This document shows positions 6,695 through 56,565 of a stretch of 64,000 nt of DNA, piece by piece. The stretch's first letter is position 1; each line of letters opens with the position of its first letter. Source of the DNA: Enoplolaimus lenunculus (taxonomy: Eukaryota); assembly GCA_030248215.1 (NCBI GenBank), contig JASANG010000621.1, forward strand, positions 1 to 64,000. The letters are read 5' to 3'. The translations under genes and the position numbers were made by a program. The notes beneath the pieces are model-generated. The model was not told the DNA's origin and did no database searches. It saw only the letters and a list, made by a program, of their open reading frames with translations.

Positions 6695-9403
6695 GGCAAA
6701 TTCAAATTTTGTCGGTAAATTCGAATTTTGACGCGAAATTTGAATTTTGGCAGAAAATTCAAATTTCGCCGGGAAAAATTAAATTTTGGCGGGAAAACTT
6801 AAATTTTGGCAGGAAAACTTAAATTTTGGCAGGAAAACTTAGATTTTGGCGGGAAACTTTGATTTAGGTGGGAAATTCAAATTTTGGCAGTAAAATTTAA
6901 ATTTTGACGAGAAAACTTAAATTTTGGCGGGAAATTCAAATCTTGGCTTGAAAACGGGAAAACATAGATTTCGGTGGGAAATCCAAATTTTGGCGGTAAA
7001 ATTTAAATCCTGGCTTGAACATTCATGTTTTGGCGGAAAATTTAATTTTTGGTGCGAAATTCAAATTTTGGCGGGAAATTCAAATTTTTGCGAGAAAATT
7101 CATATTTCAAGTTTTGGCATGAAATTCAAATTTTGAATTTTGCATGAAATTCAAATTTTGAATTTTGGCGGGTAAACTTAAATTTTGGCGGGAAATTCAA
7201 ATTTTGGCGGGAAAATTCAAATTTTGGCGGTAAATTTGAATTTTGACGCAAAATTCAAATTTTTGCGGGAAAATTCATATTTTGGCGGGAAAATTCAAAT
7301 TATGGCAGGAAAACTTAAATGTTGGTGGGAAATCCAAATTTTGGCGGTAAATTCAAGTTTTGACGGGAAATTCGAATTTTGGCGGGAAATTTAAATTCCG
7401 TCAGGAAAAATTAAATTTTAGCGGAAAAACTTAAATTTTGGCGGGAAAACTTAGATTGTGGTGGGAAATCCAAATTTTGGCGGTAAAAAATTTAAGTTTT
7501 GGCGCGAAATTCAAATTTTGGCGCAAAAATTTAAATTTAGGCGAAATTCAAATTTTGACGAGAAAACTTAAATTTTAGCGGGAATTTCAAATCTTGGCTT
7601 GAAAATTTAAATTTTGGTGCGAAAATCCAATTTTGGCGGAAATTCAAATTTTGGCGGGAAAATTAATATTTCAAGTTTTGGCATGAAATTCAAATTTTGA
7701 ATTTTGGCGGGTAAACTTAAATTTTGGCGGGAAATTCAAATTTTAGCGGGAAAATTTAAATTTGGGCGTGCAATTCAAATTTTGGCGGTAAATTTGAATT
7801 TTAGCGGGAAAATTCGTATTTCAAGTTCTGGCATGAAATTCAAATTTTTAATTTTGGCGGGTAAACTTAAATTTTAGCGGGAAATTCAAATTTTAGCGTT
7901 AAAATTACAATTTGGGCGTGCAATTCAAATTCTAGCGGTATATTTGAATTTTGGCGGCAAAACTTAAATTTTGGCGGCAATTTCAAATTTTGGCGGAAAA
8001 ATTTAAATTTAGGCGAAATTCAACTTTTGACGGGAAATTCAAACTTTGGCGGGGAATTCAAATTCCGTCGGGAAAAATTAAATTTTGGCGGGAAAACTTA
8101 AATTTTGGCGGGGGGAAAACTTAGATTGTGGTGGGAAATCCAAATTTTGGCGGTAAAAAAATTCAAATTTTGGCACGAAATTCAAATTTTGGCGGAAAAA
8201 TTTAAATTTAGGCGAAATTCAAATTTTGACGAGAAAACTTAAATTTTAGCGGGAATTTCAAATCTTGGCTTGAAAATTTAAATTTTGGTGCGAAAATCCA
8301 ATTTTGGCGGAAATTCAAATTTTGGCGGGAAAATTCATATTTCAAGTTTTGGCATGAAATTCAAATTTTGAATTTTGGCTTGTAAATTTAAATTTTGGCG
8401 GGAAATTCAAATTTTAGCGGGAAAATTTAAATTTGGGCGCGCAATTCAAATTTTGGCGGTAAATTTGAATTTTTGCGGGAAAATTCGTATTTCAAGTTTT
8501 GGCATGAAATTCAAATTTTGAATTTTGGCGGGTAAACTCAAATTTTGGCGGGAAATTCAAATTTTAGCGCTAAAATTTTAATTTGGGCGTGCAATTCAAA
8601 TTTTAGCGGTATATTTGAATTTTGGCGGCAAAACTTAAATTTTGGCGGCAATTTCAAATTTTGGCGGAAAAATTTAAATTTAGGCGAAATTCAACTTTTG
8701 ACGGGAAATTCAAACTTTGGCGGGGAATTCAAATTCCGTCGGGAAAAATTAAATTTTGGCGGGAAAACTTAAATTTTGGCGGGAAAACTTAGATTGTGGT
8801 GGGAAATCCAAATTTTGGCGGTAAAAAAATTTAAATTTTGGCGCGAAATTCAAATTTTGGCGGAAAAATTTAAATTTAGGCGAAATTCAAATTTTGACGA
8901 GAAAACTTAAATTTTAGCTTGAATTTCAAATCTTGGCTTGAAAATTTAAATTTTGGTGCGAAAATCCAATTTTGGCGGAAATTCAAATTTTGGCGGGAAA
9001 ATTCATATTTCAAGTTTTGGCATGAAATTCAAATTTTGAATTTTGGCTTGTAAATTTAAATTTTGGCGGGAAATTCAAATTTTAGCGGGAAAATTTAAAT
9101 TTGGGCGTGCAATTCAAATTTTGGCGGTAAATTTGAATTTTTGCGGGAAAATTCGTATTTCAAGTTTTGGCATGAAATTCAAATTTTGAATTTTGGCGGG
9201 TAAACTCAAATTTTGGCGGGAAATTGAAATTTTAGCGCTAAAATTTTAATTTGGGCGTGCAATTCAAATTTTAGCGGTATATTTGAATTTTGCCGGAAAA
9301 TTCAAATTTTTGCGGGAAAATTCTAAATTTTGGCGACAAAACTTAAATTTTGGCGGCAAATTCAAATTTTGGCGGAAAAATTTAAATTTAGGCGAAATTC
9401 AAC
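6695..9403. repeat. ~20-bp minisatellite with ~670-bp higher-order repeat
   Basis: Unit approximately AATTCAAATTTTGGCGGGAA; variant TTAGATTGTGGTGGGAAATCC recurs at about 7451, 8121 and 8789; short reverse-strand patch at about 2090-2265. Confidence 0.92.
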
Positions 9404-10085: not shown

Positions 10086-10578
10086 TGGGTCATCCACGTT
10101 ATACTGTCTACGCTACTGTAAAAAATTGTCCCCACGTACGAGCCCCTAAGTCTGTAATTTTACTGTTTCCAAATCACATGCCCAAATGTCACTCATATCC
10201 TGTTTAGACCCTACTGACAACTCGCACTCTCTATGGGCGACCTATGCTTGTTCACGTTGCCGTCCATACCCAAGCTAAAATGTCAATACGTTATTTAAAG
10301 GGCAACTGTTTTGTCCAGAGTCTGTCAGAAGGGACTCAGCTTATTTCACAACACAAAGTTTGTCGGAAGGAACTTTGCTTTGCAATTATACAGGTCTGTT
10401 CGAAGGAACTCGTATTGTCAGACACTGTGTCCAGACAGTGTCTACATTGTCCTTAGTCCCTTCGAAGGACCTGCTTTCAAAACCCACTATCTATCTACAC
10501 CTTCTGTAAAGTCTTTATAGCTTAAGGACATTGTCGTTTTGTCGCGCCCTTAATACCAGGTGTGTGGACAATTTTTTT
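10086..10578. mobile_element. Harbinger-like MITE copy, cut in its right TIR by the large LTR element
   Basis: Close copy of 5630-6120; the last ~35 bp of the right TIR are replaced by TGTAACACAGCG. Confidence 0.85.
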
Positions 10579-12542
10579 TGTAACACAGCGAACCCAGAAA
10601 TTCAAATCGATCGGCACTCCGGGGAACGACTTCCTAACTAAGTTCGAAGGTTACCAAAGCAAACACAAACGGCTAATTCTCTTACAATAAAAAATGACAC
10701 GGGGCGCCTACTGAATCAAATCAAGTTGATAACCCCACGCCCAAAATAGACTCCGTACACAATATTCAGAAAACTCCGCAGAGCACAAATCGTGCTAACG
10801 CAAAATTCGCTACGTACCACTGACGCCCCAAAATTAAATAAATTTGTAAGATTACGGCACCTTTGCAGGGTAGGCTCATAACAACGCACCAAAAATTATC
10901 CTGTGGCACCCTGATTCCACTTCGATACTAGAAATATTCCGAATTAGCACAAAAATAAACCACTGTTTACCAACAAATTTTCCACTAATTTCCAAAAGAT
11001 ACAATTCACGACGAGAAATTTATGCGAACTAGTGCTCACTCACAGCACCGAACCTGTTAAAACTCTCTAAGTGTCGTTAAAAACAAAATAAGTGATTGAA
11101 TAATTTACGGATTCCTTACGGAAATAACTCGTATGCGCGCGCTCTATTGTATACGCAAGTACAACCGCTAAAATTCTCGAACAGACCTCTTGTCTGACAC
11201 CACAAATTCCCAAAATCTATGCACTTATATTTAACGCAAGTTTCTACAAAACTTCCACTGCACCACGATTTCAGTTAAAATGCTACAACTCTAACTCAAA
11301 AATTATCGCACACAGCGGTTCTTAACTAATCTTAATACTTCCCGTACAAACTAAGTAAACGCCTTTAAGCGCTCAACAAAAATCAAAATCGCGCGTCTCT
11401 ATACGTCGCTAAACAATCGGACAGCATATCACACCCGTACAACTCTGAGCCCCCAAACCCAACCTGTTCTACTCTTATATAGTCGTGAACCGAAAGGTTA
11501 GCTGAATTCTAAGAATCTTATACTACATTTTTAAAATTCCTCCAAATTTCTGAAAAACTAATAAATTTTACTTATCTACAGTTTTTCTTACAAATTTCAA
11601 CTTAAAAATTTTGTTAAAATCTAACAAAAACCTGTTTTGTCTAAAAAATCTAGTTTTTAGATGAAAATTTAAACTTTTAAATCGGTTAAAAAATCTAAAT
11701 TATGTTGTTTTGACCCTAGTAATTTATTTTAAAAACAAAATTGATCTTTCAAATCGCATAAAAAGTAAAAAAATCCACTATTTTGACGAAAATCCGTAAT
11801 TTTCAAAACAAAATTTTAGCTAAAAATTTACAAAAATTTACATAAAAACTAAGTTTTGACCAGAATTTATAAATTTCAAAACAAATTTTATTTTTTAAAT
11901 TAAAATTTTAAAATAACTTCTAATATTTTGTCTTCAAATTAAAATTTGCAATCGTTTTAATTCTAGGAATTAAGCCTACCAAAATTTCCAAAAAGGGGAT
12001 AATTTCAGTACTATTTCACAGATATGGAATTTTCTCTGTTATACTATGCTACAAATTGTATCTCGGAAATAAAACCTTGATTTTAAGGTACAAATTTATT
12101 CCTTTTTATGGTTTCAAACATGATGAACCTGGCCTAAAAATTGCAATTATAGCAAGGACAAAACTCAACTAAAACGACTGCAAACAAAAAACTACAATCT
12201 ATCCGCACCGCATAACTCCTGCGCCTACTGTAAACCTAACCCGTGTATAAAAACTAAAAGCATAAAATCGCGGAGGCAAAAAAATATATATTGCTGGCTG
12301 TATAACCCAACAACAACAACAACAATAAACAACAACAACAACAATAAACAACAACAACAATATTACTACAACAACAACAACAATATTACTACAACAACAA
12401 CAACAATATTACTACATGTATGTATGCACACATACAATTGATACACACTACACAAGCATCACTACAGGGTAATAGGTATAAAAAATTTTAAAATTTCGAA
12501 ACGGGGGTATTCTAAGAATTTCAGCTACCCCCCCACTCTACA
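10579..12542 (-). repeat. 3' LTR (1964 bp)
   Basis: Minus strand reads TGTAGAGTGGGGG...GTGTTACA; 10579-10840 and 11434-11830 align to the other LTR; contains a (CAA)n tract at about 12307-12415. Confidence 0.85.
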
Positions 12543-12560
12543 CTCTCCTCACTTTATTTT
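12543..12560 (-). other. Polypurine tract
   Basis: Minus strand AAAATAAAGTGAGGAGAG directly precedes the TG of the 3' LTR. Confidence 0.8.
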
Positions 12561-14315
12561 GAGCGAGCTCCTGCGAGTTAACTTAAACTACTTCCTAAAA
12601 CAAAAAAAACTACCACAACCCCAAAAATATACTTACCAATCACAGTCGAAGCCTTTGGACCATGATCCGAGGCGCTTCACCAAATATTGGCCTGTCATTC
12701 GATAGCTATCGTCAACCGCTTAACCATTAAAATGTAGAGTTAATCAACTGAACTTCCTAAAATAAGAATTCCTAAAAATACAACAACAATAATATTAAAT
12801 TATAGACAAAATTTAGCTTTGCGTTTAAGAAATTGGTGGCTTCCTTACGGAAAGCAATGTTTCCGAAAAATAACAGAACACTATTTACACACCGAATCCA
12901 AGTATATTTTAACTCACCAGCTGTTCGCTAAAAAATGCCTAAAATACATCGACGATTACACAACATAATATTTAAACTGTACACAAAGAATTAAGTTAGA
13001 TAAGTAAGGAAACACATTGGCTGCCTTACGGCTACAGTAATTTAATTTTCAATAAAGTAGCTAATGACTCAAACTAAATTTTTTTTTTTTTTAGTTTTAA
13101 GTTTCTCTTCCTTTCATTTCTTTTGTTTTGTTTTATTAATTTACAATTGTACATACCCGTATTAAAGCTCACGCTAGGTAAGCCAAACTTACTATGTCTA
13201 TACATTCCAACACTTTTTAAGACTTGTTGGTATAAAAATTACATGATCACCCTGAAATAAAATACAATGTATATGATTAACATTAAAGCGATATATACAG
13301 CATTGGTAATATTTGACAAAATTATGGCTTCCTTGCGGTCATAAATGTTTTTGTAATAACTAAAACATTGCATTTTACATAGCTAATCGACGTGTTATAA
13401 TATGTTCGAAAACAATAACTAAAATACCATCTACAAAAGTACATTAATTACTCTCTGTACATTGAGGCACATGGAGTAAATAATAAGTAAACAAATTGAC
13501 TCCCTTACGGGTTCAAATACCAGATATGAGAAAAGAAAATAAAAAGTATTTTTATTTAGTTTTATTTATTTAATTTTTTTAATCTTACGCCCAAAGATAT
13601 ATATTTTTTTACATATTTTTTTGTTTATTTTTGTTTTGCATATAATTTACAAATATGTACATAGTTGCTTTACACCACGTAATCGAGGATAGATACTTAC
13701 AGTCACTGCAAGTTGATAAGCTTTCTAATTACACTAATCAAAACAATTAATCCAGACACAATAAAAATTCCTCACCATGCTGCCATTGTTCGCCCACATA
13801 TCTTTGCCGGATCACCCATTGACTGTCTCATATAAGCTGCTTTTCCGATGATTGCTAAAACAGGTATTTTAAAATATAAAAACATCTAGTTCATAACATG
13901 AAACATAAGTTAAAGAACGTAGGGCTCCCTTGCGGGCATATGCTACAACTGAACTCACCATTGAAACGAGATAAAAATTTTGCATATCAGTACCAAAATA
14001 GACTCATTGCAGATTTATGCATGAGTGATTAGTAATTGTTCGGTCAACTTAGAAAGCTGTCTGTGCGCACGCCATTGTTTGAAACACTAAAATGGTAGTA
14101 TATGGAAATAGGCAACTCTATGATTTCCTTACATACTCATTAATTGAATTGTATGGCTCCCGTATGGGTAAAACGCCTATAGTATTTAAATGGCTAAGCT
14201 AGTTCAAACATAGGCAAAACCTGTGTTGTTATTTTTTTTATTATAAAACTCAAACTGAAATTATCCTTACAATAACATGGTAACACTGTGATTAGTGACT
14301 AACATTAACGAAGCA

Positions 14316-14903
14316 CTATTCAACATAGCAGTACACAATGTTAAAAACATTCGGTCGCGAAATCAAAGGTGCTCGTGGTATTAGTTTTTTTCTTGAAACA
14401 AGTTTTTTATTACTTAATTCTACCCGCAAACGCATTAGCATATGACCCATTTCATTTCTTCCTGGCCAGCTAGCTGGACATGCGAACTGTGGATCAAATT
14501 TAGTTACTCCAGTTCCCCAAAATGAATCATATTTATTAGTTTCTGCTATAAGGCAAGTTCCTGTATCAACCAATGCATCTCTAAGCGTAGGGTGTTGACA
14601 AAACTTCGCATAAACCGCTTTTTCCATAACACGGAGCTTGTCTTTCTTCCACCCTGCAATCAATCGCCTACCTACAAAAGTTCTTAACATTAATTTTTGT
14701 TCAATGGCCATCAGTCGTTTTGCTTGTTTAGGATCACTAGTCTTTAATATTTCTTTAGCTAACTGCAACCTACCAAGTTCTTTGGCTTTAGTGTATTGGT
14801 AGAAATGCTCCACTGATGCATAACCTTGGCCATCAATTACAATCGGAACTAAATATAAGTTTGAAAACACATGAGATGACCCGATAAACGGAACTATAAT
14901 CAT
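14316..14903 (-). CDS. NADAR/YbiA-family hydrolase (195 aa from first ATG; frame open to 15002)
   Basis: Family motifs FSNLY..PIVIDG..YASVEHFYQ..KA, W....LRVMEKAVYAKFCQHPTLR..L..TG, IAE...D.FWGTG and W.GRN.MG.MLM.LR. Confidence 0.9.
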   Translation of the reverse strand: MIIVPFIGSSHVFSNLYLVPIVIDGQGYASVEHFYQYTKAKELGRLQLAKEILKTSDPKQAKRLMAIEQKLMLRTFVGRRLIAGWKKDKLRVMEKAVYAKFCQHPTLRDALVDTGTCLIAETNKYDSFWGTGVTKFDPQFACPASWPGRNEMGHMLMRLRVELSNKKLVSRKKLIPRAPLISRPNVFNIVYCYVE

Positions 14904-15161
14904 GTTATTTGTGCTTAATCTACGAGGAAAGGTATAAACTAACCTAATGGAATATATTGAGAATATGGCCAACCAGCGTTGATGGTAAATCCGCACAGCC
15001 AAATCCTACCGCAACCTCCAGTGAAATTTATTGCAGTTAATGGAATTAAGCAACAGTTGAGATTAGAGCAGCTGTTGAAATGTCCAGAATATAGGCACGC
15101 GAAGCGTAATTATTATGCGATGACTAATGTTATGTTAGGGATATATAGGCAGTAATATAGT

Positions 15162-18100
15162 TTATCGCGATGCTGGTAATGGATTAGCTAAATTAATCCG
15201 CATATGTATGAACCGTTTTACTGCCGGAGCCATTGGCTCAATCCAGGCGTTCGCTTCGCTACACTCTCTAATAGACTCACGGACCAGAGGCTGATCAAGG
15301 AAGTGCAACGTGTTGCATACAAAGAAATTAGCTTTTCTGGCCCGCGTAATAGTAACGTTCACTCGCCGATACTCAGATAAGAAGCCTAGCGGGTGTGGCT
15401 GACCCGCTGCGTCTAATGATGGGAGTGACCGGACGAGAGAAATGATCATATAATTTCTCTCGTCCCCTTGCCAGACATTAGCACATCCGATTTTTATGTC
15501 TGGATATTCCCTACCTACCATCTGTTTGAGCAGTTCCGTCTGAATTGCATATGCTGCATTGATTCCAATATCCGCCGGTGGCACCCCACCCTGGTGTACC
15601 AGCAGCTCAACCAACTTAGTTACCGCCATCAGTTCATGTCTATTGTACAGACTCACACCATGGTACGCCTGTTGCCCTTCGATATGCCAGATCACAATGG
15701 GTTGCCCAAAGGGGATTTGGCGAACGCTAGGCCAGTCGGTGTGTTGCAACCACTGGTCAGCGGAACAAAGCAAGGGCGTTTCAGTATACACCACGCGATT
15801 TGGCGGTTCCAGTAGTGCTGGCACTGAACGGTAATTTTCACGTAGTTGTATTACTCGGCAGTCAGTACTGTTTTTCGCTAATGTCAACAATAACTCCATC
15901 CCTGATTCTTCCGCGCCGAATTGCCACAAAACCCTGTTGGTGACATATGCCGGTAGCTGGTGCACGTCACCCATCAAGATAACTTGACCGGCCACTGCTA
16001 ACGGTAGAACCACCGACATGCGCGGTAAGTCCACTGAGGCGGCCTCATCGATTGCTATTACGTCGAAAACGCCATGACCGTAATTGGGCTCGTTTTTACA
16101 ATGATGAAATGCGTCTAAATTGTTCACAATGTCCATAATAGCCATATCCATGGTGCACACAATGATTTTATGATATAACAAAGCACCAGATGACTTAAGT
16201 TCCCGCTGCCCGTCTTGTTCGGTGGTGTTAGGATCGCTTCGCGTCGCGCAGTACGGCTGTAACACTGGATCAATGAGATTCATGTCGTAGTTGCGCCGTA
16301 GGTAGCGCACGACGACTCCGGGTGGTATGACCTCGTTGTTACTAAGGGACTGTAAATTTTGAACCAGTTTTAGCGCGAGAATATTTGCAGCAGCGTTGGT
16401 GCTTGTGACACACAAAAAACGCTTCTCTGGATTGCTCCATGACAATGCGGAAAGAATGCGGGCAAGGGTGCTGGTTTTTCCTGTTCCGGGAGGTGCGCGA
16501 CAAAGACTAACTTTTACACCCTGAATCAGTGCGGTAAAAACTTGTGACTGGTTATAATTTAACCAGTGTTGTACATACTCGTCAGTCGTTCTGGTCGTTC
16601 GCCACTGTATGGGTTTCTGATTCAGTTCATTCCTAAGGCCACAAAAAAGCAAACCATACCACGACCTCCAGGCGGCAAAGAAACGTTGTCGAAATTGTAT
16701 ACGGCGGCTGTTCGCCAGGACTTGAGCATCAGCGGTCGGTTCGACAGACGCTGATGACGTGGATGATTGCTCCGAAGTGTCAGGCATTTCAATATCCCCT
16801 TCCGGTTGCTGCGGTAAACTCGGAAGCTGTGGCTGCTCGATCACACAGTTTAATAGTGAAATTAAATATTCCAGTGCAGGACCCATCATTGGAACCAATT
16901 GAACGTCTCGTAAGTTTCGAAGGTTGGGACCATCATAGAATATGTTTCGCGTTCCTTTGTTCAGTTTGATGACGACCATGGTGTGATTGATGTTAATAGG
17001 CTGTGAACCGACTACTGCGACGACTATCTTGACTTTCCAGTCCGATTGTACTAAATTAGCCAGGCGCGTGAGTCGAAGGTTGCGAAATTCGTTGGTGTCC
17101 ACTGTAACCGTCAAGAACATGGAATCGGGTGGCGATTTCTCAAACTCGTATAAATCGGAGCTTCCGCTATTCGCAATGGTTTCGAAATCACTAGCTACAG
17201 TTGGTGATACCGTAGTCACCGTCGCCTTTGGAGGGTCGTCTTCCTCGTACTGAACCTGGCCTAATAATTCTGCAAGTACGCGGTGAGGCAAATTGTTAAA
17301 GGTTACAGGTCGAGTCGGGTCAAGGATTGCCAGGATATCGTTCTTATTAGGTGTACTAGGCAGAGGCTCTGGTGCATCTGCCGCCACCAGCCGGTGATAA
17401 ACCGGGCGTTCGACCAATGTCTGAGCTGGTGCTATGGCGAACTGATACCAGATTTCAAAGTATGGTGATAGGTGCGGTATAGTTATCTTGGTTGGTTTCA
17501 AACAACGATTCACAGTTGCAGGGTCTTTTCGCTCGTTCGGTACGCCAAGAGCAGATTGTGGAACCAGCGACAGGTGCCCAGCCTGCTGTTCTGCACTCGA
17601 TTTACGAATCAGCGCTTGCAAGGCCTCATCAATTTTCTCATCGAGATATAAGTCGCGGAAATCCCATTGGATTATCGTCGTGAACGGGGCAAATTTGTTT
17701 ACTCGGCGACGTGATTGATACTGAACCCACATTTGTAGCTCGTAGTAGTGTAACCCAAGCCGACCCTCACCGGAAATGGTCACGTGAAATGTGGGTGATT
17801 GGTTACGTGCACGGGGCATTACGGGACTAAATACAACGCCGTCCGGAACGATACAGTTTGGGGTACGTGGTATAAACAGTTGAAAGGGCTGCCGATCCGT
17901 AGTGGTAGCGTCGAATAAAAGAGTGGATACCTGGTCAAAGTCCGACAGTCCTTGGATGACTGGCAATGCTGGAGCTTCAGGCGCCCAAGGTGCGCCGAGA
18001 TGAAAACTGGCCTGTCCATTGTCTGCTCCAACACATTCAATCAACACCTGAGCACCATACATCGAGTTTTTAAGCTCAGTGATGCTGCCGATCCTGCGTC

Positions 18101-18542
18101 TTTCAATCCACTTCTGGTGTTCAACCAATGCTACCCCCACCGGACTAAATCGAAATTTCTGCACTTCAATGCTGACCATATGAAACGGAGTCCACAAATG
18201 ACTGGGGCCAAATATAACCGTTCGGCATACAGGACATAAAGTCATTGGACTCTGGGGCAAATTCTTAGGCCAAGCTACGTACTGGAGCTGCTCTGCTAAT
18301 CGCTCCCAAAGCGCATGATCTAGTGGACTGGAATCGTCTGTTAAACCCAATTCGCATAGAGCTGGGCGCAGAGCATCAATAGGTAAATAGGCCGAAAGAC
18401 AGTTCAGTGCTGCGGATTGGCTGTAGGGGTGAAGCGTCTCGCGAATTAAAGATGTAGCAACGAGATTGGACAAAGCCGGAGGAATGCCAAGTCGAGCACT
18501 AAACTCCACGACGGGGTTAGGGCTACCAGCAGCAGAATTCAT
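15162..18542 (-). CDS. Upf1-like superfamily 1B helicase (1126 aa, intronless)
   Basis: Walker A APPGTGKT, Ia TSTNAAANIL, Walker B IDEAA, III GDVHQLP, LRENYRS, YNRHE, V WQGDERNYMIISLVRS, VI RRVNVTITRAR. Confidence 0.92.
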   Translation of the reverse strand: MNSAAGSPNPVVEFSARLGIPPALSNLVATSLIRETLHPYSQSAALNCLSAYLPIDALRPALCELGLTDDSSPLDHALWERLAEQLQYVAWPKNLPQSPMTLCPVCRTVIFGPSHLWTPFHMVSIEVQKFRFSPVGVALVEHQKWIERRRIGSITELKNSMYGAQVLIECVGADNGQASFHLGAPWAPEAPALPVIQGLSDFDQVSTLLFDATTTDRQPFQLFIPRTPNCIVPDGVVFSPVMPRARNQSPTFHVTISGEGRLGLHYYELQMWVQYQSRRRVNKFAPFTTIIQWDFRDLYLDEKIDEALQALIRKSSAEQQAGHLSLVPQSALGVPNERKDPATVNRCLKPTKITIPHLSPYFEIWYQFAIAPAQTLVERPVYHRLVAADAPEPLPSTPNKNDILAILDPTRPVTFNNLPHRVLAELLGQVQYEEDDPPKATVTTVSPTVASDFETIANSGSSDLYEFEKSPPDSMFLTVTVDTNEFRNLRLTRLANLVQSDWKVKIVVAVVGSQPININHTMVVIKLNKGTRNIFYDGPNLRNLRDVQLVPMMGPALEYLISLLNCVIEQPQLPSLPQQPEGDIEMPDTSEQSSTSSASVEPTADAQVLANSRRIQFRQRFFAAWRSWYGLLFCGLRNELNQKPIQWRTTRTTDEYVQHWLNYNQSQVFTALIQGVKVSLCRAPPGTGKTSTLARILSALSWSNPEKRFLCVTSTNAAANILALKLVQNLQSLSNNEVIPPGVVVRYLRRNYDMNLIDPVLQPYCATRSDPNTTEQDGQRELKSSGALLYHKIIVCTMDMAIMDIVNNLDAFHHCKNEPNYGHGVFDVIAIDEAASVDLPRMSVVLPLAVAGQVILMGDVHQLPAYVTNRVLWQFGAEESGMELLLTLAKNSTDCRVIQLRENYRSVPALLEPPNRVVYTETPLLCSADQWLQHTDWPSVRQIPFGQPIVIWHIEGQQAYHGVSLYNRHELMAVTKLVELLVHQGGVPPADIGINAAYAIQTELLKQMVGREYPDIKIGCANVWQGDERNYMIISLVRSLPSLDAAGQPHPLGFLSEYRRVNVTITRARKANFFVCNTLHFLDQPLVRESIRECSEANAWIEPMAPAVKRFIHMRINLANPLPASR

Positions 18543-18940
18543 AATTAAAGAGCGTTGATAATTACGGCGCCTTTACAGGCAAAATGTCGCTGCTAAACTC
18601 GTAATGTTACTGTTGTTGATATATGATGACTATGGGTCCCTTACGGGTAAAACATTGCTGCAGCCAGCAGTACATAACTTTGACAGTTGAAGGTCGATGA
18701 TAATAAAACGTAACAACTATGGATCCCTTACGGGTACACAGCGCTGCCACAAGCAACCATATTAATAGCAGTTGAATGCTGATATTATTGCTACTACTTT
18801 TAATACGTAATAATAATAATAATAATGTAATTTGACAGTTACGGGTCCCTTACGGGTTATAACTACTTTGTTTATTTCAAACGACACGACATCGTGCGTA
18901 GTCCCGATCGCCAATGACATTAATGCTATGGAAATTGTGA

Positions 18941-21900
18941 TTACAACGGAAAATGGCTAGAGCCACGAGCGCGTAAATTATACCGATGCATTGCCCGAGG
19001 TACGGGCGCAGTGGTTTCCTGGTGCTCCTGTTCCCTTGCATCAATGTCACTAGATGCCGTTTCCATAGCAGAGTCGTTACCGTTTGATACATACTGCAAT
19101 TCATGATTGCTGGATAAACCGGGATTTTTATCTACTTCTAATCCGTTCTCAATATCTACGTCCATATTTGCCTTCGTACTGCAGGTACCGGTTTCATCTT
19201 GACGTAATTCAGGTACATAAGGACCATAAAAAGGTTTAATGCGTTCTACATGCACCCTTTTATGTTGCTCCTTAGGGTTAGTTATGGATTGCAAAACAAC
19301 ATCAGGAAATACTAACTCTATGATTTCATAAAGACCGTGCCATTCTTGTCCTAATTTCTTAGTTTTTCCTTTCTTTTGAAAAGGCACGTGCAATAGGACC
19401 TTTTGTCCCTCAAAGAAATGCGGTTCCGCGGCACGACGATCATGATAAAATTTCATGTGATCTTGGGCTGACTGTATGTTTTGCTTAGCCAACGCCCATG
19501 CTGCTTTAAGGGTAAGTTGCAAATCCCTAAAGCAATCTTCTTCATCTAAGTAATTGACGTTACTAATTGGCAATGCTACATCAATTGGCAGCCGTGGTTG
19601 TCTCCCATAAACTAATTCAAAGGGGCTAAGCCGTGTAGATTCGTTAACACTTACTCTATAAGCAAAACAAGCAAACGGAACGAACTCATCCCAAGTGCGT
19701 TGAGCACTGTCTATGTATTGAGAGACCATGTTCATTAAGGTACGATTTATTCGTTCCACCACCCCATTGGTTTGGGGTCGATAGGGTGTTGTAAAAACTT
19801 TTCGGGTTCCTGTAATTTTACAAATTTGGTCAACTAATTCGCTTCGAAAATTAGGTGCATTGTCACTAATTAATTCACATGGGGCTGAATGGCGACAAAC
19901 TACCTCAGTCATAAACAATTTTGCAATAGTAGTGGCTTTTTGATCAGGAGTGCAAATGGCCTCGGGATATTTTGTAAAACGATCAATAAAAATTACCACG
20001 TATTTGTTCCCATTATAGGTTTGGGGTAATGGGCCAAGAACATCCACATGATATGAAAAATTGGGCTGCGTAGTAGGAATTGGATTCAATGGTGCCTTAG
20101 GCCTGGCCGGTCCAGTTTTACGCTTACTGCACTCGATGCAAGCCTTGCACCAATTTACTACGTCACGGTACATCCCATCCCAAAAATACTTGGGTAATAA
20201 CTTTTGATATGTCTTGGCAACACCAAGGTGTTGTCCACCAACAACATCATCATGATGTGCTGATAGTAATTCTTCACGCATAGAGAAAGGAACAACTAAT
20301 TGTTCCCAGAGTACACCGGGTCGATATTTGGGTATAGGATAATGATGGTACAAAACTCCATTTTTTACTACATAACGTGGCTGGATTAATGCAAAGTGCG
20401 AAGCCAGCTTTGCATCATCCGGGTTTTTACCAAATTCAATATATTCCTTTAAAGCCTTAATCTCTGGGTCCTGCTCTTGTTTTTCCGCAAACGGAATAGT
20501 TGATGGTAGGTCCTGCTTGTTGGAAGTTTCACTTAAGGCAACTGCGTATGCAAACTTAATATCTTCCTCATCAGAACCTTCTTCTAATTTAGAAATTTCA
20601 GTACGAGAAAGGGCATCAACATGCGACATATTTTTACCCGCTCGGTGTTCAACATTAAAATCGTATTCACTTAAAGCAAGTGCCCAACGCTGTAATCTTC
20701 CCGATGCATTCTTATTAGTTAATAACCATCGAAGGGCTGAGTGATCAGTTATTATAGTCACATGCTGTCCGTATATATAATTACGAAAATACTTCATAAA
20801 ATAAACAACAGCTAATGCTTCCAATTCAGTAGTGGTGTAATTCCGTTCAGCTTTTTGAAGCAAACGACTACCATAAGCAATAGGATGGGCTCTGCCCTCG
20901 TTATCTTTTTGAGATAACACAGCTCCAATTGCCTTACCGCTAGCATCTGTTTCCAAAATGTATGGCTTGCTGGGATCGGCTATTTGCAAAATTGGAGGAG
21001 ACATAAGTTTAGATTTTAATAATTGAAATGCTTTTTCAGCCTCTGAATTCCATTTAAAAGGTTTCAAGGTGCTAGTAAGTTGACTAAGTGGCTTAGCAAT
21101 TGCTGCGAAGTCTTTTATAAAACGACGGTAATAACTGCAAAACCCCAAGAAACCTCGCACACCAGTAATATCATTCGGTATAGGGTAATGTTCAACTGCT
21201 TCAATCTTTTTCGGATCTGGCTTCAAGCCTTCAGCAGAAATAATATGACCTAAATATGGAACTTCTTTTCTTAAAAAGTTACATTTAGCTGGTTTAACTT
21301 TAAGACCGACATCCCTTAATCGTTCAAATACAAGACGCAAGCGTCTAATGTGCTCGTCAAAAGTTTCAGAAAACACGCATATATCGTCTATATAGATAAG
21401 GCAGACACGCTCAACTAATCCACGAAGGGTGGCCTCCAGTGTACGTTGAAAAGTAGCAGGAGCGTTGCATAAACCAAAAGGCATTTTAGTAAATTGATAC
21501 AAACCAGCTGGGGTAATAAAAGCAGTTTTCTCAATTGAATCAGAAGCCATAGGGACTTGCCAATATCCTGATATTAAATCCATAACACTAAAATACTTTG
21601 CTTTCCCTATACACTCCAGTAAATCATTAATATTCGGAAGTGGAAAACAATCCTTCTTAGTCACGGCATTTAATTTTCGGTAATCAATACAAATGCGCAA
21701 AGACTTGCCGTCTTTCTTTTTAAGTACAACCATTGGACTAGCCCAGGGGCTTGTTGAGGGCTCAATGATTCCGTAACGTAGCATGTTGCCTAACTCTGTA
21801 TCCACCTTATCCTTAGATTGAAAAGGCACCCGATAAGGTCTCTGCTTAATAGGCACTGCATCCCCAGTGTCAATTGAATGTTCAACTACTGATATAGTTC

Positions 21901-24900
21901 CACAATCGTAATCATGCTTTGCGAAAACATCGTTAAATTCCAAAAATAATTCAATCAACTTTGACTTTTCGATTCCCGAAATTTCAGACTCCTCTAATTT
22001 TAGATCAGCTATCAAATCAAAATGTGGTTGACAACTAACAGATTGTAAGTTCAATACAGTAGGTAAAACACAAGTATCTAAGGGTTCTATTCGACCAACA
22101 GTCATGCCCTTATACAGCCGAACGGGACAATTCGACATATTAAGTAATCGCAAAGGAATAACTAAGTTATCCGCATCACTTAATATTAATTCAACTGTGT
22201 TTAAACCGTATAACTGAATAAGCTTATAATTTGGTTCAAAATACACATCACCCTCATGTCCAAACCCTTTTACTTCGCAGGGTATAAGCACCTCTGATCT
22301 TGAAGGAATAAGTGTAGTATCTGGCAAGAGTACATTTTGGCTTGACCGATATCCCATCTTTAACTGCATTTTTCCAAGCTTAACAATGCCTGTTGCGTAA
22401 TCTAGACTTATAGTGCCAAATTGTCGTAGTAAATCAACCCCTAGTATTGCTGGGTGGGCGCATTCATCTGATACATACACATGAAAAGGTAGGGATTTGG
22501 AACCTATTTCAATTTGTACTTTAATAGCACCTTTCAGGGGTAATGCATGACCAGTAACTCCAACAGCGGTGGTGGCGGGTACTGGAACCAGACTAGTTTC
22601 GGGTTTATTCAATTTTCGAAAAGTTTCTGATGACATAACAGTAATATTACTTCCAGTATCGATAACTGCTCGTACAGGTATATCATTCATGTAAATTTCA
22701 ATGTCCGAAAGAGAGGGTCCTAAAGTCAAAACAGTCTCCGCTACGGTATGACTCGGAGAAAGGCTGGTTGAAAACTGTAATGCACGTTTCCGTTTGCTAC
22801 ATAAAAATTTTGATGGTCCAATAACAGTTGAATGTATAGGCAATTCCAACGTTTCAGTTTCAGGGGAAGTACATATTACTTCCACAGGGGTTGACCTTTC
22901 TTGTCCATAAGATTTACAACAGCAACGCAAACACTTAAACCATTTGCCATACCAGGCGTATATAACACATATACCCACTACCAACATGACCAACCCGACA
23001 GCTATATAACTTAATAAATCGCTATAGGGTAAATTGAAATCAGCACTAGGTGTAAAAGACAAAAGCTCCCTTTTTAATCGGGTACGAGTCAAATTAGACT
23101 GATACTCTACGTTTTCTAAGCTTCCCCACACTGGCGGTGGCACTACGTCTTGATGTAGAGTGAAATTGTATTGAACATCAGGTGAAATTTCAAAGTTAAG
23201 AGCGGGTCTAGAGGTCGACATAAGCACGCGGTCTCCAACAATCAGCATACTAAAATTTTCAAAAGGCATAAACATAACCCCGCGCTCCGGTACACGCATA
23301 GTCTCAATTACAGATGAGGAGACCAATTTTTTAGTCCTTGTGAGCTTGACAGTTGGTTCCGAAGTACGCAAAAGTAATCCAACCCGAGTGGTTTCAATAT
23401 GGGTGCCTGCAAACATTTGTTTAACTTCCATTGCACATGTATTATTATGCACTACGGCTTGGCGCATTCCTCTAAAACAGCTGTCCGCTTCGCTAGTTGG
23501 CAAAGCTTCCATCCCACAGTACCATAAACCAATACGCTTGTCACAAGCTTCGGACTTTACTTCGTGATAATACCCCTTACTAAACATACGAGCATAAGTT
23601 ACAAACTTAGGCAAAGCTAATCGGGCAATTATTTGTTTTGAAGGAATGTTAAAACCGACGTTTATAACCTTCATAAGCGGCAACACGTTCTTAATTCGTA
23701 TTAGGGGGATTTCCAAAATTATTCCAAATTTTGTTTCTCGAATATCTAGTAGCACGGGATAAACCTTAACAAAGTGGTAGAATAATCCGGGATCATGTAT
23801 GTATACTGAATTTCGCAATGTTGGCTCCTGTTTAACAAGCTTTTTAATTTGAGACGCAGACAGAATTGCGACAGATAAGCGACCGCTATCACTAGCAAGG
23901 ACTAATGCATCCACTACTTTACGTACTCCATTTATAAACTGATTTGATTGAGAAATAAAATGCGAAATCGTTACCGATTCTGTTAAACTGCAGGTCATTG
24001 TAATTCGGGTTTGTTCTACATATTTCTGTATCTCATGGGTTATTGCGAAAACTCGCTGTTGGTTAATATTCAGTTTATGAATTGCCTCCGAATTTTCAGT
24101 GATTTCGTCATTCAAAAGTCGAACACTTTTCTGGAGGGCCAAAATTTTTGGTTCCAAATGTGACAACTTAATACTATTGGCAATTCCAAGTCCGGTGCCC
24201 ATGATCGAAGTCAAACCAGTCAAAAGCAGGGGGACAAAGCGGCGATTACGACCCGAAGTAACAAAACTACAAGTGAATGGCTTTTTCTCACACATGTCTC
24301 TCATTAGCTCTTCATAAAATGCAGAGTCGATGGTATCCTCATAGTTATTAGCCAAATCCGAAAGTGCCTGTTTCTTAATCATGCTAAATAAACGCTGTTG
24401 ACCAGTGCAATTACAAAAAGTAGGTGTACCACCTTGAAAAACAAGAGGAGAGCATGGCTTAATTCGGTCTTGTCCAGCATGCACAACTACAGGCAGGTAA
24501 ATGGATTCACTTGCGGTTAACACTAGACCCTCAGGTATAAGCCCAACCCCAACAGAAGGAAAAATTTTTGGTTGTAATTGATGTAATGTTTGCGTTAAAC
24601 TAGAATCAACACGACCCGTTAAACTAAATATGAGTGCAATCACACAACAAAGTAAAATATTCCATGGCTTAAGTGGAGGAACTTTGCACCTACTTGATCG
24701 TCTAGGACAGTTACTTCGAACCGGTGGTTTATCTGTAACAGCTTCATTCAAATTTAAAGAAGCAGGTTCAGTTTGGGTAAATTTAGCAACATGATGTGTA
24801 GCCTGGATGGCTCCGACAAAATTGGGAAACGATTTTTCCACTAGGAGGGCATTTTGACTACGCAAAGTAGCAAGCTCTTTCTTAAGACGATCAATTTCTT

Positions 24901-26104
24901 GCTTAGAATCGCATCCAGAATTAACAGCTTTTGCATCATTAGATACTAGAGTAGTAGCTACAACGGCTTTGTTAGGCGGGACTGGTGATAAAGTTGGTAA
25001 ATTTGGGATATTAGGCCGCGCAGGGCGGTTAAAGTTCGATGCCGGAAAATTTGGCCGATAAGTCGACCGTCCAAAATTATTTTGAGTTTGGAGTCTGTTA
25101 TTCCGAGGAAAATTTCCGTTACGTAACAAACAGGCCATTGCTAAATGTCCAACTTTCCCACAATTATAACACTTCGGACCGCGAGGGGAAAAATTTTGAG
25201 CCAAATCGGGACGTGGATTTTGAAAGTTTCGATTTGGTGGGCCCCTATTTGGTGGACCTCGGTATCCGTTAGAAGGTTGGGGTCTGTTCCGTGGCTCAGG
25301 ATGCCTAAAGGTGTTTCTGCGCATGTTCTGTATAAGCTGCTTTTGATTATTTGCCAGCAGCTGGACTCCCCGAGCGAGCGTATGCAAAGTCTGCTTTGGA
25401 GCAGGCACGGACATGTTCAAAGGATCAACGCCTGTCGGTTTTCCACAGAGTAAAGACTGCATATCTAGGCGCTGAGCTAAGTCCTCCGCTTCCTTAAGCG
25501 TTTTTGGCATATCCCGAAAAACTTCTAGCTTAGCTTCAGTTGGAAGTAAACCGCCGAAAAATCTATGTATAACTCTACGGTCAAACGCGGCGTTGTCCAA
25601 ATTAGGATAAACACTTTTACAAGCATTCTTAATACCCTTTAAATAAGCTGCAACACTTTCACCAGGCAGCTGATGTCGCTGCTCAAGCGCTGCTTCATGG
25701 TACATAGTCCACTCAGTGGTTGTCAATTGGGCCTCTAAAGCCGGTACTAAATCAGTAAAACGGCGCTTAGATTGTTCAGGTACTCGCTCATATGCATCCT
25801 TAGCACGATCTTTTAAATAGGCAGGCAACACCTTAAGTTTCATATCATCATCAATTAAACGGGCATTACAATAAGTATTAAAAGTATCAATCCAACTTTT
25901 AAAATCAGACCCGGTTAAATCTCCCCGAAAAAATGTAATTGATAAATCAGGTTCAGTACCCAATCTTACACGTTGGGATATTAAATCAAAATCGTCACTT
26001 AATCCTCTTAAGCCATCATCTACACGATTAGCAAGATCTTTCACAACAGCATCTAGCTGAGCTATGTTCCTAGTTATATTTTCCATGTTTGGGTTTTGTA
26101 ACAC
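18941..26104 (-). CDS. Gag-Env-Pol polyprotein (capsid, CCHC knuckle, class I fusion glycoprotein, protease, RT, RNase H, integrase)
   Basis: In order: CYNCGKVGHLAMAC; hydrophobic WNILLCCVIALIFSL; RNRR/FVPLLLTGL; TM YIAVGLVMLVVGICVIYAW; VIDTGS; YIDD; ETDASG; HHCC zinc motif and DDE core (DVLGPL, ISDNAP, GVVER). No stop or frameshift. First ATG is at 26086 and the frame is open further upstream. Confidence 0.95.
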   Translation of the reverse strand: MLQNPNMENITRNIAQLDAVVKDLANRVDDGLRGLSDDFDLISQRVRLGTEPDLSITFFRGDLTGSDFKSWIDTFNTYCNARLIDDDMKLKVLPAYLKDRAKDAYERVPEQSKRRFTDLVPALEAQLTTTEWTMYHEAALEQRHQLPGESVAAYLKGIKNACKSVYPNLDNAAFDRRVIHRFFGGLLPTEAKLEVFRDMPKTLKEAEDLAQRLDMQSLLCGKPTGVDPLNMSVPAPKQTLHTLARGVQLLANNQKQLIQNMRRNTFRHPEPRNRPQPSNGYRGPPNRGPPNRNFQNPRPDLAQNFSPRGPKCYNCGKVGHLAMACLLRNGNFPRNNRLQTQNNFGRSTYRPNFPASNFNRPARPNIPNLPTLSPVPPNKAVVATTLVSNDAKAVNSGCDSKQEIDRLKKELATLRSQNALLVEKSFPNFVGAIQATHHVAKFTQTEPASLNLNEAVTDKPPVRSNCPRRSSRCKVPPLKPWNILLCCVIALIFSLTGRVDSSLTQTLHQLQPKIFPSVGVGLIPEGLVLTASESIYLPVVVHAGQDRIKPCSPLVFQGGTPTFCNCTGQQRLFSMIKKQALSDLANNYEDTIDSAFYEELMRDMCEKKPFTCSFVTSGRNRRFVPLLLTGLTSIMGTGLGIANSIKLSHLEPKILALQKSVRLLNDEITENSEAIHKLNINQQRVFAITHEIQKYVEQTRITMTCSLTESVTISHFISQSNQFINGVRKVVDALVLASDSGRLSVAILSASQIKKLVKQEPTLRNSVYIHDPGLFYHFVKVYPVLLDIRETKFGIILEIPLIRIKNVLPLMKVINVGFNIPSKQIIARLALPKFVTYARMFSKGYYHEVKSEACDKRIGLWYCGMEALPTSEADSCFRGMRQAVVHNNTCAMEVKQMFAGTHIETTRVGLLLRTSEPTVKLTRTKKLVSSSVIETMRVPERGVMFMPFENFSMLIVGDRVLMSTSRPALNFEISPDVQYNFTLHQDVVPPPVWGSLENVEYQSNLTRTRLKRELLSFTPSADFNLPYSDLLSYIAVGLVMLVVGICVIYAWYGKWFKCLRCCCKSYGQERSTPVEVICTSPETETLELPIHSTVIGPSKFLCSKRKRALQFSTSLSPSHTVAETVLTLGPSLSDIEIYMNDIPVRAVIDTGSNITVMSSETFRKLNKPETSLVPVPATTAVGVTGHALPLKGAIKVQIEIGSKSLPFHVYVSDECAHPAILGVDLLRQFGTISLDYATGIVKLGKMQLKMGYRSSQNVLLPDTTLIPSRSEVLIPCEVKGFGHEGDVYFEPNYKLIQLYGLNTVELILSDADNLVIPLRLLNMSNCPVRLYKGMTVGRIEPLDTCVLPTVLNLQSVSCQPHFDLIADLKLEESEISGIEKSKLIELFLEFNDVFAKHDYDCGTISVVEHSIDTGDAVPIKQRPYRVPFQSKDKVDTELGNMLRYGIIEPSTSPWASPMVVLKKKDGKSLRICIDYRKLNAVTKKDCFPLPNINDLLECIGKAKYFSVMDLISGYWQVPMASDSIEKTAFITPAGLYQFTKMPFGLCNAPATFQRTLEATLRGLVERVCLIYIDDICVFSETFDEHIRRLRLVFERLRDVGLKVKPAKCNFLRKEVPYLGHIISAEGLKPDPKKIEAVEHYPIPNDITGVRGFLGFCSYYRRFIKDFAAIAKPLSQLTSTLKPFKWNSEAEKAFQLLKSKLMSPPILQIADPSKPYILETDASGKAIGAVLSQKDNEGRAHPIAYGSRLLQKAERNYTTTELEALAVVYFMKYFRNYIYGQHVTIITDHSALRWLLTNKNASGRLQRWALALSEYDFNVEHRAGKNMSHVDALSRTEISKLEEGSDEEDIKFAYAVALSETSNKQDLPSTIPFAEKQEQDPEIKALKEYIEFGKNPDDAKLASHFALIQPRYVVKNGVLYHHYPIPKYRPGVLWEQLVVPFSMREELLSAHHDDVVGGQHLGVAKTYQKLLPKYFWDGMYRDVVNWCKACIECSKRKTGPARPKAPLNPIPTTQPNFSYHVDVLGPLPQTYNGNKYVVIFIDRFTKYPEAICTPDQKATTIAKLFMTEVVCRHSAPCELISDNAPNFRSELVDQICKITGTRKVFTTPYRPQTNGVVERINRTLMNMVSQYIDSAQRTWDEFVPFACFAYRVSVNESTRLSPFELVYGRQPRLPIDVALPISNVNYLDEEDCFRDLQLTLKAAWALAKQNIQSAQDHMKFYHDRRAAEPHFFEGQKVLLHVPFQKKGKTKKLGQEWHGLYEIIELVFPDVVLQSITNPKEQHKRVHVERIKPFYGPYVPELRQDETGTCSTKANMDVDIENGLEVDKNPGLSSNHELQYVSNGNDSAMETASSDIDAREQEHQETTAPVPRAMHRYNLRARGSSHFPL

Positions 26105-26296
26105 AAGGTGGGAGTTACTATCGAGGGGTTCAGAAAATTCAGAATCGTCGTCGCTGGATTCTAAGACACCAGTACTGCGTAATTTGTATCGAGCCGTTAT
26201 TTTTACAAAACAAACTGAACGTTCTTTAAAAGGGTAAAGGTTAGCACTCGGACAAAATTTTCGACCAAAGCTCGTTTACCGGTTAAGAAAACTGGT

Positions 26297-26314
26297 ATCT
26301 CGGTGGGACCTCCA
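26297..26314 (-). other. Primer binding site, tRNA-Gln
   Basis: TGGAGGTCCCACCGAGAT lies 2 nt from the 5' LTR end and is complementary to the metazoan tRNA-Gln 3' end (ATCTCGGTGGGACCT-CCA). Confidence 0.88.
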
Positions 26315-26316
26315 AA

Positions 26317-28323
26317 TGTAACACAGCGAACCCAGAAATTCAAATCGATCGGCACTCTGGGGAACGACTTCCTAACTAAGTTCGACGGTTACCAAAGCAA
26401 ACACAAACGGCTAATTCTCTTACAATAAAAATGACACGGTACGCCTACTGAATCAAATCAAGTTGATCTTCCCAAGCCCAAAATTGACTCCGTACACAAT
26501 TCAGAAAACTCCGTATAGCACAGATCGTGCTGACTCAAAATCCACTACGTACTACTGACGCCCCAAAATAAAATAAGAAATGCAAAATTATGGTCCCTTT
26601 ACAGGTGCAATTCCAAATAAATTGCTAAATAATGACTTCTCGGAAATAGTATAGTTCTACTCCAAACACAACGACTCCCCTTAAGTAATCAAGTCAGCCT
26701 AATATCAGAATTTTAGGCCAGGAAATTAAAAAAGAATCAAATAGTTCAACACCACCAATATACACTTCTCGATAATTACCAGTTTCAACTTAGGGTCCAA
26801 AAATATGCGAAGTACTCTTTGCACGAAAAAAATCAAAATTGCGTAACTCTTGCAAAAAAATAAATCAAGTAATTTAATAACTACGGCTTCCTTACGGAGC
26901 AAAGTCGTAGCTGCGCGCAGTTTGCTATAAATCACCAAGGAAGTACCTAAATTTGCTACAATTGTCCCACCAGCAATTTTTTTCAACAAAATTTAACTTA
27001 AGTAGGCAGAAAATTTCTCGCCTACTACGGGCTCCCAAATACTCAAAATATCCTCTACGCGTACTATTCACCAAGTATCCCACGACACAACTTAACGCGC
27101 AACCGTAAATTTTATATAAACACAGGCACCCTAAGTTCAAAACAATTCGCATAAATCGCCGGTACTAATTCTCCGATAAGAAATTGGGCAGCGGTTCGCT
27201 CCCGTACAACTCTGAGCCCCCGAACCCAACCTGTTCTGCGCTTATATATTCGTAAACCGAAAGGTTAATTGAGTTCTAGGAATTTTATGATAAAATTTTA
27301 AATTCTTTCAAAAATGTTGAAAAACCACTAAATTTAACTTAAAAAAGATTTTCTTAAAATTTTCTAACTCAAAATTTTGTTAAAATCGAACAAAAAGCTG
27401 TTTTGTCTTAAAAATTCAGTTTTTAGAAGAAAATTTAAACTTTTAAAATAGCTCAAAAATCTAAAGTATGTTGTTTTGACAGAAGTAATTTATTTTAAAA
27501 ACAAATTTGATCATTCAAATCGCATAAAAAGTTGAAAAAAGTACTATTTTGACGAAAATCCGTAATTTTCAAAACAAAATTTTAGTTAAAAATTTTAAAG
27601 AGTTCTTAGAATCCTAATGTTGTGGCTTCGAATGGTTGTTTCAAGGTTCCTACAATTCTCAGAACTGTCATTCTTTAACTTCTTAAAAAGGGGCTACTCG
27701 ACCACCATTCTGGACTTAGATTACAATTTTATACTACAAAATATTAAATAACATGTCCTAGACTTCTCGCAGTAGTGCATATCCATCAGGAAGCTGATAT
27801 TGATATCCGACTATAGACTAAGCCTGATTTACCCAATACCCCGCTTATTTTTACGCAACTACCACATAATCCGACAAATTCAATTTCTCACATATGTGAG
27901 CATTCATACAATTCGATATTCTACATGAAAGCTAAAGTAATGAGCAATAATTACACTACTTGCCTACACAACACTGCACTTGCAAGTGTTCCAAAGTGCA
28001 CTGGAATAAATATACACACAAACAGATGTATGAACAATTGTTTAAGTCCTTTCAGTAGGTCCAATAGCAATATAACAGCACAAATCTTCCCAATAGCACC
28101 AACCTCAACTGTACACAATAATTAAAACACACGCACATATACAAATGTATAATACATGAACACACTAATTGTATATGTATACACAATATGTATACACATA
28201 TATATTGCACCATACACATCAATAAAATGGGATAAACTTAAAAAATTTCCTCCGACGTTACAAAAAGGGGGTTTTAAAGTCACACCAGGGTATCCTAAAA
28301 ATTCTAAAATCCCCCACGCTACA
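26317..28323 (-). repeat. 5' LTR (2007 bp)
   Basis: Minus strand reads TGTAGCGTGGGGG...GTGTTACA; abuts the PBS; aligns in blocks to 10579-12542. Confidence 0.85.
27200..27250 (-). promoter_or_regulatory. Putative LTR core promoter (TATA box and initiator region)
   Basis: TATATAAG at 27241-27248, mirrored at 11474-11481, followed ~30 nt downstream by GCTCAGAGTTGTACGGG conserved in both LTRs. Confidence 0.6.

Positions 28324-56135: not shown

Positions 56136-56565
<430 letters not shown>

Follow-up and report, generated by a model that had tools for sequence, protein, structure and literature searches.

Helicases have been described before as cargo of retrotransposons. According to the accessible text of two reports, insect LINEs (TRAS/R1, Jockey) and Copia elements carry viral SF1H helicases with intact motifs; these derive from plus-strand RNA viruses (Viral_helicase1), are present as fusions, and have been proposed to suppress silencing or remodel RNA (PMC5563155; PMC6338049). 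Another cargo domain, NADAR (YbiA family), is known from Ectocarpus Gypsy elements and oyster Tx1 LINEs, where the available part of that report has it as a fusion within Pol or ORF1 (PMC12477816). An Env between gag and pol is also on record. In the available sections of the respective papers, Burro/GYPSM1 of planarians has an in-frame F-like Env in this position along with accessory domains (PMC6431247), and the GAG-ENV-POL errantiviruses of nematodes, bryozoans and flatworms have only gB-type env (PMC13524379). No helicase or NADAR is described in these sections, and the main text of PMC13524379 does not contain the word 'helicase'. On the host side, the accessible text on MOV10 reports that it restricts retroelements (L1, Alu, retroviruses) and that its helicase motifs are required (PMC3475670); its N-terminal region is unlike the CH domain of UPF1, in the part of the source available (PMC12305709).

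Here we describe an LTR element in a 64,000-nt stretch of DNA (the window). Like the insect elements it carries a helicase with intact ATP-side motifs, and like Burro and the errantiviruses it has a putative Env between gag and pol. Unlike the insect SF1H proteins, its helicase appears to be of cellular MOV10 type, is encoded by a separate ORF with its own putative zinc finger, and belongs to a Gypsy element; its NADAR, rather than being fused, is a third ORF behind the helicase. The literature covered, which takes in few subscription journals and leaves out Repbase, yielded no LTR element with a MOV10-type helicase.

Architecture of the element

The element and its features are as follows.

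26317..28323, minus strand: 5' LTR (TG...CA), ~2.0 kb, with hairpin motifs at 26895 and 26602
26297..26314, minus strand: primer-binding site, two bases past the LTR
18941..26086, minus strand: ORF1, a single frame of 2,381 aa, order Gag (with a CCHC knuckle)-Env-protease-RT-RNase H-integrase
22943..24673, minus strand: aa 472-1048 of ORF1, the Env-like part (with two hydrophobic segments; Atlas features)
18543..18940, minus strand: ORF1-ORF2 intergenic region, carrying four hairpins of GNRA type (loops at 18853, 18731, 18644 and 18576)
15162..18542, minus strand: ORF2, MOV10-lineage SF1B helicase, 1,126 aa (ORF, Pfam, trees, AU tests, fold match)
18180..18236, minus strand: C2H2-type zinc finger pattern, aa 103-121 (C103-x2-C-x8-H-x5-H121)
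15246..16562, minus strand: helicase core, two RecA domains, aa ~661-1099 (model pLDDT mostly >85)
14316..14903, minus strand: ORF3, NADAR (YbiA-like), 195 aa (Pfam 113 bits; YbiA E 6e-12)
12848..13933, minus strand: 3' non-coding part, carrying five hairpins of GNRA type (loops at 13933, 13508, 13336, 13029 and 12848)
12543..12560, minus strand: polypurine tract
10579..12542, minus strand: 3' LTR, with hairpin motifs at 11119 and 10866 that have the two in the 5' LTR as counterparts

The helicase ORF thus sits between LTR plus primer-binding site and polypurine tract plus LTR, after the gag-env-pol ORF and before the NADAR ORF, which bears out an earlier description of it, made by inspecting the letters of the DNA (the sequence-only reading), as borne by a retroelement. 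The LTRs, primer-binding site, polypurine tract and PR-RT-RH-IN order identify an env-bearing Ty3/Gypsy element. The primer-binding site may match tRNA-Gln. The Env part has signal-like and anchor-like hydrophobic segments and no Pfam match; Atlas features liken it to an F-type fusion protein (0.96, with 220/256 in common), at a recognition value of 1523 that lies below the tool's 2300 mark. Among the 120 Pol relatives listed, none has AAA_11 or AAA_12 and none matches the Env part. The genomic RNA would be ~16 kb long, ~8 kb of it past the ORF1 stop. A pyrimidine-rich TAG upstream of the NADAR ORF may serve as a splice acceptor.

The host genome is animal-like as far as the window goes, which contains intron-bearing ENPP and TIL-domain genes.

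The helicase reading frame

A single frame of 1,126 codons is open and stop-free from 18542 to 15162 on the minus strand; the chance of such a frame is 8e-25. It is also the basis on which the gene is read as free of introns, as it had been from the start. The product matches AAA_11 (E 4e-15) and AAA_12 (E 4e-30) in Pfam, and human UPF1 aligns with aa 663-1099 (E 3e-19). Two RecA domains, these two Pfam matches and motifs Q and I-VI make it a UPF1-like SF1B helicase.

Compared with 155 other SF1B cores, the protein has the majority residue at Q665, K689/T690, N716, R746, T797 and D832/E833, and is also of majority type at Q862, Y904/R905, N967, Q1025/G1026/E1028, R1060 and R1067. The exception is T715, where 131 of the 155 have S and 20 have T. 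The sequence-only reading had called the SF1B motif set complete and intact; this is so for all ATP-side motifs, and it missed that motif V/Va departs from the consensus. Here the protein has A997 (P in 144 of the 155), A1021 (V or T in 146) and N1022 (E or D in 154). Changes at the same places are seen in all four members of the family introduced below (the window protein, P0134, P0135 and P0209), each of which has N at 1022. The altered positions presumably face RNA, as in UPF1 structures. The residues of the helicase predict activity as an RNA-dependent ATPase, and the kept ATPase residues favour an enzyme over a dead decoy. The decoy suggested earlier is therefore unlikely in its catalytically dead form.

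The possible zinc site noted in the N-terminal region holds up as a pattern. Shuffled sequences give it in 0.05-0.5% of cases, and CxxC-x8..14-H-x5-H recurs in the relatives P0135 and P0209 (P0134 begins further downstream). It occurs in 3/4 of the family, in 22/132 MOV10-clade matches and in 1/24 others.

As had also been observed, the GC content is visibly above that of the polyprotein (0.488 versus 0.402 for gag-env-pol). At fourfold sites, the helicase has 254/550 (0.46) and ORF1 302/1040 (0.29; Fisher p 2e-11), with 0.23 for NADAR. GC3s is elevated along the whole ORF, at 0.41-0.51 in seven windows of the helicase versus 0.23-0.38 in 15 of the polyprotein. Three host exons have a GC4 of 0.33 (n = 87), so the helicase GC does not point to the host.

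Relatives and placement

A full HMMER scan with the helicase gives 7,810 matches with the E cut-off at 0.001, and three with the cut-off at 1e-30. Word-based homologue searches return only 12 generic matches each and miss the family. Two ENA proteins without a name, P0134 and P0135, match the window helicase beyond the core, and P0209 joins them in the trees; all three are 25-28% identical to it. A recent, neutrally evolving retrocopy of a host gene, the case that the sequence-only reading had set against its own, does not fit with three relatives at this distance that have the motif V changes in common. The three may not be retroelement genes.

Full cores could be obtained for 160 of 163 proteins, and 132 of the 160 fall in the MOV10 clade. 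In a tree of 55 cores, with UPF1, IGHMBP2, SEN1-like, DNA2 and others as outside groups, the family of four is recovered at 100/99, the family plus P0169 at 99/94, and these together with 32 MOV10-clade rows at 100/99. UPF1 is represented by P0254 (744 bits to human UPF1) and P0162 (397 bits). Under a mixture model (28 rows) the corresponding values are 100/98, 91/85 and 100/99, and the grouping of the family with P0169 is not starred. AU tests on 22 rows reject placing the family with UPF1 (p 0.0002) or IGHMBP2 (p 0.003), and reject a position of P0169 within MOV10 that separates it from the family (p 0.02). They also reject nesting the family in the sampled animal MOV10 (0.001) or Armitage (0.0003) proteins, or nesting it there with P0169 added (0.03 for each); all of these trees and tests are weakened by the long branches of the family.

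Other measures are less specific. A family profile does not separate UPF1 (167 bits) from MOV10 single-helicase rows (137-205); it gives the ZNFX1 chain 73 bits. Walker A-B spacing is uninformative on the subfamily (124-142 in the family, median 116 in MOV10, median 147 in the others, with many unmeasured). The N-terminal 650 aa of the family have no sequence match to the N-terminal region of MOV10, and none of the four family members shows a Pfam MOV-10 domain, be it N, Ig-like, helical or beta-barrel. Because these four domains are undetected, we speak of the MOV10 lineage and not of an orthologue. Named cellular proteins do not exceed 36% identity among the best 150 matches over a real core match.

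The next relative of the family is P0169, a JGI protein of 2,875 aa that combines RT, RNase H and integrase with a helicase at its C-terminal end. Its RT region is 33% identical to ORF1, placing it in a distant Gypsy lineage, and its pre-core region is of MOV10 type (E 3e-16 with a MOV10 profile built here). The DNA context of the relatives was sought in viral contigs, with nothing beyond 7 generic loci at 26-27%, and in metagenome contigs, with one match of 44 aa only.

The AlphaFold model has a mean pLDDT of 63.7 and is confident for the core only; pLDDT is below 70 over the N-terminal 650 aa of the family, and a single-sequence model of aa 1-661 reaches 34.5. Ahead of the core, where UPF1-like helicases have a stalk and a 1B beta-barrel, the model has strands (aa 475-563) and a helix (605-637) at pLDDT ~40-68, without a profile match. 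In the model, the beta-rich, helical and beta-barrel parts would come in the same order as in MOV10, Armitage and SDE3, at low confidence. The top fold match in a viral library is an SDE3-named protein (E 3e-28), with nidoviral helicases behind (2e-19); the alignment input consisted of 71 sequences, mostly MOV10, which biases this comparison. Matches in the PDB are UPF1-family structures with no clear ranking among them, and Atlas features on aa 1-600 are uninformative (best 0.82).

Two other identities were rejected. A UPF1 orthologue is at odds with the AU test above and with the lack of a Pfam match to the UPF1 zinc-binding or 1B domain. A nidoviral or alphavirus-like SF1 helicase is at odds with the family profile (25-27 bits for nidoviral helicases, versus 167 for UPF1) and with the lack of a PF01443 match at E 0.1. 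The sequence-only reading had offered UPF1, MOV10/Armitage, ZNFX1 and ERI-7 as one family; the SF1B assignment stands and, among the subfamilies sampled in the trees, narrows to MOV10/Armitage/SDE3, and UPF1, IGHMBP2 and the nidoviral proteins drop out.

On the evidence of sequence comparison, then, the protein is very probably a helicase of the MOV10/Armitage/SDE3 side, sister to the sampled clade. It resembles MOV10, Armitage (MOV10L1) and SDE3 in the grouping of the SF1B cores and in the C2H2 finger pattern of some members; it differs in its sister position, the undetected N-terminal domains, the altered motif V/Va, the intronless gene and the location inside an LTR element. That element-borne helicases of this kind form a regular family is likely, at somewhat lower confidence. 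Capture through an RNA intermediate, as suggested earlier, is plausible.

Integrity of the copy

The two LTRs agree at 108 of the final 110 nt and align in two further blocks at 90% and 84%; about half is unalignable. The element flanks have no target-site duplication, and the LTRs are not the near-identical pair of a single insertion. The 3' flank is a repeat seen again at 5744-6121, which the 5' flank does not continue. Old age was considered as the source of the mismatch: at 5% random change, the helicase was left stop-free in 0 of 300 runs. Since neutral ageing is incompatible with three intact frames, the copy probably arose by recombination between two related insertions or was joined in assembly.

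Read support comes from three DNA runs that cover two samples of a single study; one run may be the source of the window. The helicase-NADAR junction is bridged by contigs in both samples, and one contig connects the end of ORF1 with three of the four intergenic hairpins. No bridging piece from pol to the helicase start was found among 24 of the 1,507 contig pieces. Read depth there is not usable as a copy number, and the five variants that reads show in the helicase, 3 of them synonymous (among 40 of 2,030 rows), are too few to use.

GNRA hairpins

The hairpin motif consists of a 3-bp stem, a GUAA or GCAA loop and a conserved tail. In 6,630 nt of non-coding sequence there are 13 on the sense strand and 0 on the antisense strand, compared with a mean of 0.05 and a maximum of 2 in 500 shuffles, for a pattern that was defined post hoc, after seeing the data. 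A stricter first search found 10, with 0.7 expected. Each LTR has two, the 398-nt gap from ORF1 to the helicase has four (the nearest 34 nt ahead of the helicase ATG), and five follow NADAR. The third stem pair, which the pattern does not require, forms in 12 of the 13, with C-G, U-A and G-C variants. Taken in full, the ORF1-helicase intergenic region is no more stably folded than shuffled versions of it (z 0.0). An Rfam search over 10400-28500 gives nothing at gathering level and three chance miRNA matches; in viral contigs the pattern has 29 single matches and clusters never go beyond two.

Possible roles

The explanation we prefer, with confidence that is evenly balanced, is an intact accessory MOV10-lineage helicase of an env-bearing Ty3/Gypsy element which, together with NADAR, would shield the element's own RNA. 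The ~8 kb after the ORF1 stop would be a likely target of NMD and small-RNA silencing. Made from a subgenomic RNA, the helicase could travel 5'->3' along this region, as MOV10 and UPF1 do, and strip host factors or structure off the element RNA; the sense-strand GNRA hairpins flanking the helicase-NADAR cassette may be loading or processing sites, and NADAR would remove ADP-ribose marks. A helicase that clears the element's own RNA is favoured because ~8 kb follows the ORF1 stop and because NADARs of RNA viruses have been suggested to act against host ADP-ribosylation, in the available text of PMC9503650. The antagonism of silencing or NMD, or remodelling of the genomic RNA, proposed in the sequence-only reading may thus apply, and a pro-element, counter-surveillance role comes slightly short of an even chance in our estimate, judging by sequence features. 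A more specific version remains tentative: an ancient capture by Gypsy of its own MOV10-family restrictor as a mobile module, separate as an ORF in this element and joined to Pol in a distant lineage, with RNA-binding motifs re-tuned, loading on GNRA hairpins and forming a two-gene counter-defence cassette with NADAR. MOV10/Armitage is central to host defence against retroelements, so an intact version owned by an element would, if true, be a restriction factor turned to the element's use. The protein also offers a natural variant for studying target choice by MOV10-type helicases, and the element a case for studying how elements with a long 3' region escape NMD and small-RNA silencing.

A purely replicative function, in which the helicase unwinds the long, structured genomic RNA so that downstream ORFs can be translated or the RNA packaged or reverse-transcribed, and has no part in anti-defence, is rather unlikely but the strongest competitor. 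The sister helicase fused to Pol in P0169 would enter the particle alongside RT, a ~16-kb genomic RNA with 13 repeated hairpins could call for unwinding, and the idea has already been raised for viral SF1H in insect elements, in the accessible text of PMC6338049. Against this, most Gypsy elements do without a helicase, as do the 120 listed Pol relatives by the AAA_11/AAA_12 measure, and the neighbouring NADAR is a conflict-type domain. It is quite improbable that the protein retains the restrictive activity of MOV10 and directs it at competitors (retroelements, RNA viruses), or that the host now profits from it: the family-wide motif V/Va changes and an N-terminus that has diverged throughout point to a change of partners or substrate, and the gene continues to reside in an element whose gag-env-pol frame is intact. 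This is so even though MOV10 inhibits L1, Alu and retroviruses via its helicase motifs (PMC3475670, accessible text) and an antiviral role has been proposed for retrotransposon helicases (PMC6338049, likewise).

Also improbable is a passenger, that is, a fast-evolving host or viral MOV10-like gene recently acquired, or joined by recombination or misassembly, and useless to the element. The GC4 difference from ORF1 and NADAR would then be incomplete amelioration, and the mismatched LTRs and absent target-site duplication fit such a join. However, both LTRs and the sequence past NADAR contain the element-specific hairpins, as does the stretch just ahead of the helicase ATG; the gene is intronless whereas host genes in the window have introns; no named cellular protein among the best 150 core matches comes close; and the AU tests reject nesting in animal MOV10 or Armitage, subject to the long branches. 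There is, moreover, a diverged copy of the helicase: a piece of 684 nt with 99 differences and 0 gaps.

A miniature LTR element in a host intron

Just outside the large Ty3/Gypsy element, a much smaller LTR element lies inside an intron of the ENPP gene:

29727-30240, (-) strand: miniature LTR element, TRIM-like
29560-33060 and 51070-53174, (+) strand: host exons of ENPP-type phosphodiesterase and TIL-domain proteins

Its two LTRs are each about 210 nt long and agree at 205 of 215 aligned columns, and it also has a polypurine tract and a 5-bp target-site duplication. The primer-binding site is the same as that of the large element, whose family may be the source of its mobilisation. Both LTRs contain a tRNA-Ser(CGA)-like sequence (ARAGORN, 29780-29851 and 30085-30156). 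Cassandra elements carry 5S RNA in their LTRs; the miniature element resembles them in having RNA gene-like sequence there, although in this case the sequence is tRNA-like instead.

Envelope and RNA repeat of the large element

22943-24673, (-) strand: env, F-type by Atlas features, in frame, with gag on one side and protease on the other
10866-26895, (-) strand: 13 sites of a GNRA-capped hairpin with a conserved tail

For the gag-env-pol gene order, the survey PMC13524379 describes only gB-type env, whereas our element combines the same order with an env that is F-type by Atlas features. The hairpin repeat occurs only on the element's sense strand, and structure drawings frequently show it forming an arm of a three-way junction; no known Rfam family fits it at gathering level across 10400-28500. 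Beside the element's 3' end, a 19-20-nt satellite unit is arrayed at 6640-9400, where it builds higher-order repeats that each span about 670 nt.

Relatives of the helicase

P0169, a JGI protein on a 13,436-nt contig and the next relative of the helicase family, is a Gypsy Pol with a MOV10-type helicase at its C-terminal end and long inserts separating protease and RT. In P0209, a member of the family, Walker B reads EE instead of DE and the conserved R746 (window helicase numbering) is replaced by W; this protein may be less active.

Elsewhere, a C-rich, homopolymer-like run at 55930-56770 (GC 0.65, strong skew) produces spurious long ORFs in several frames.
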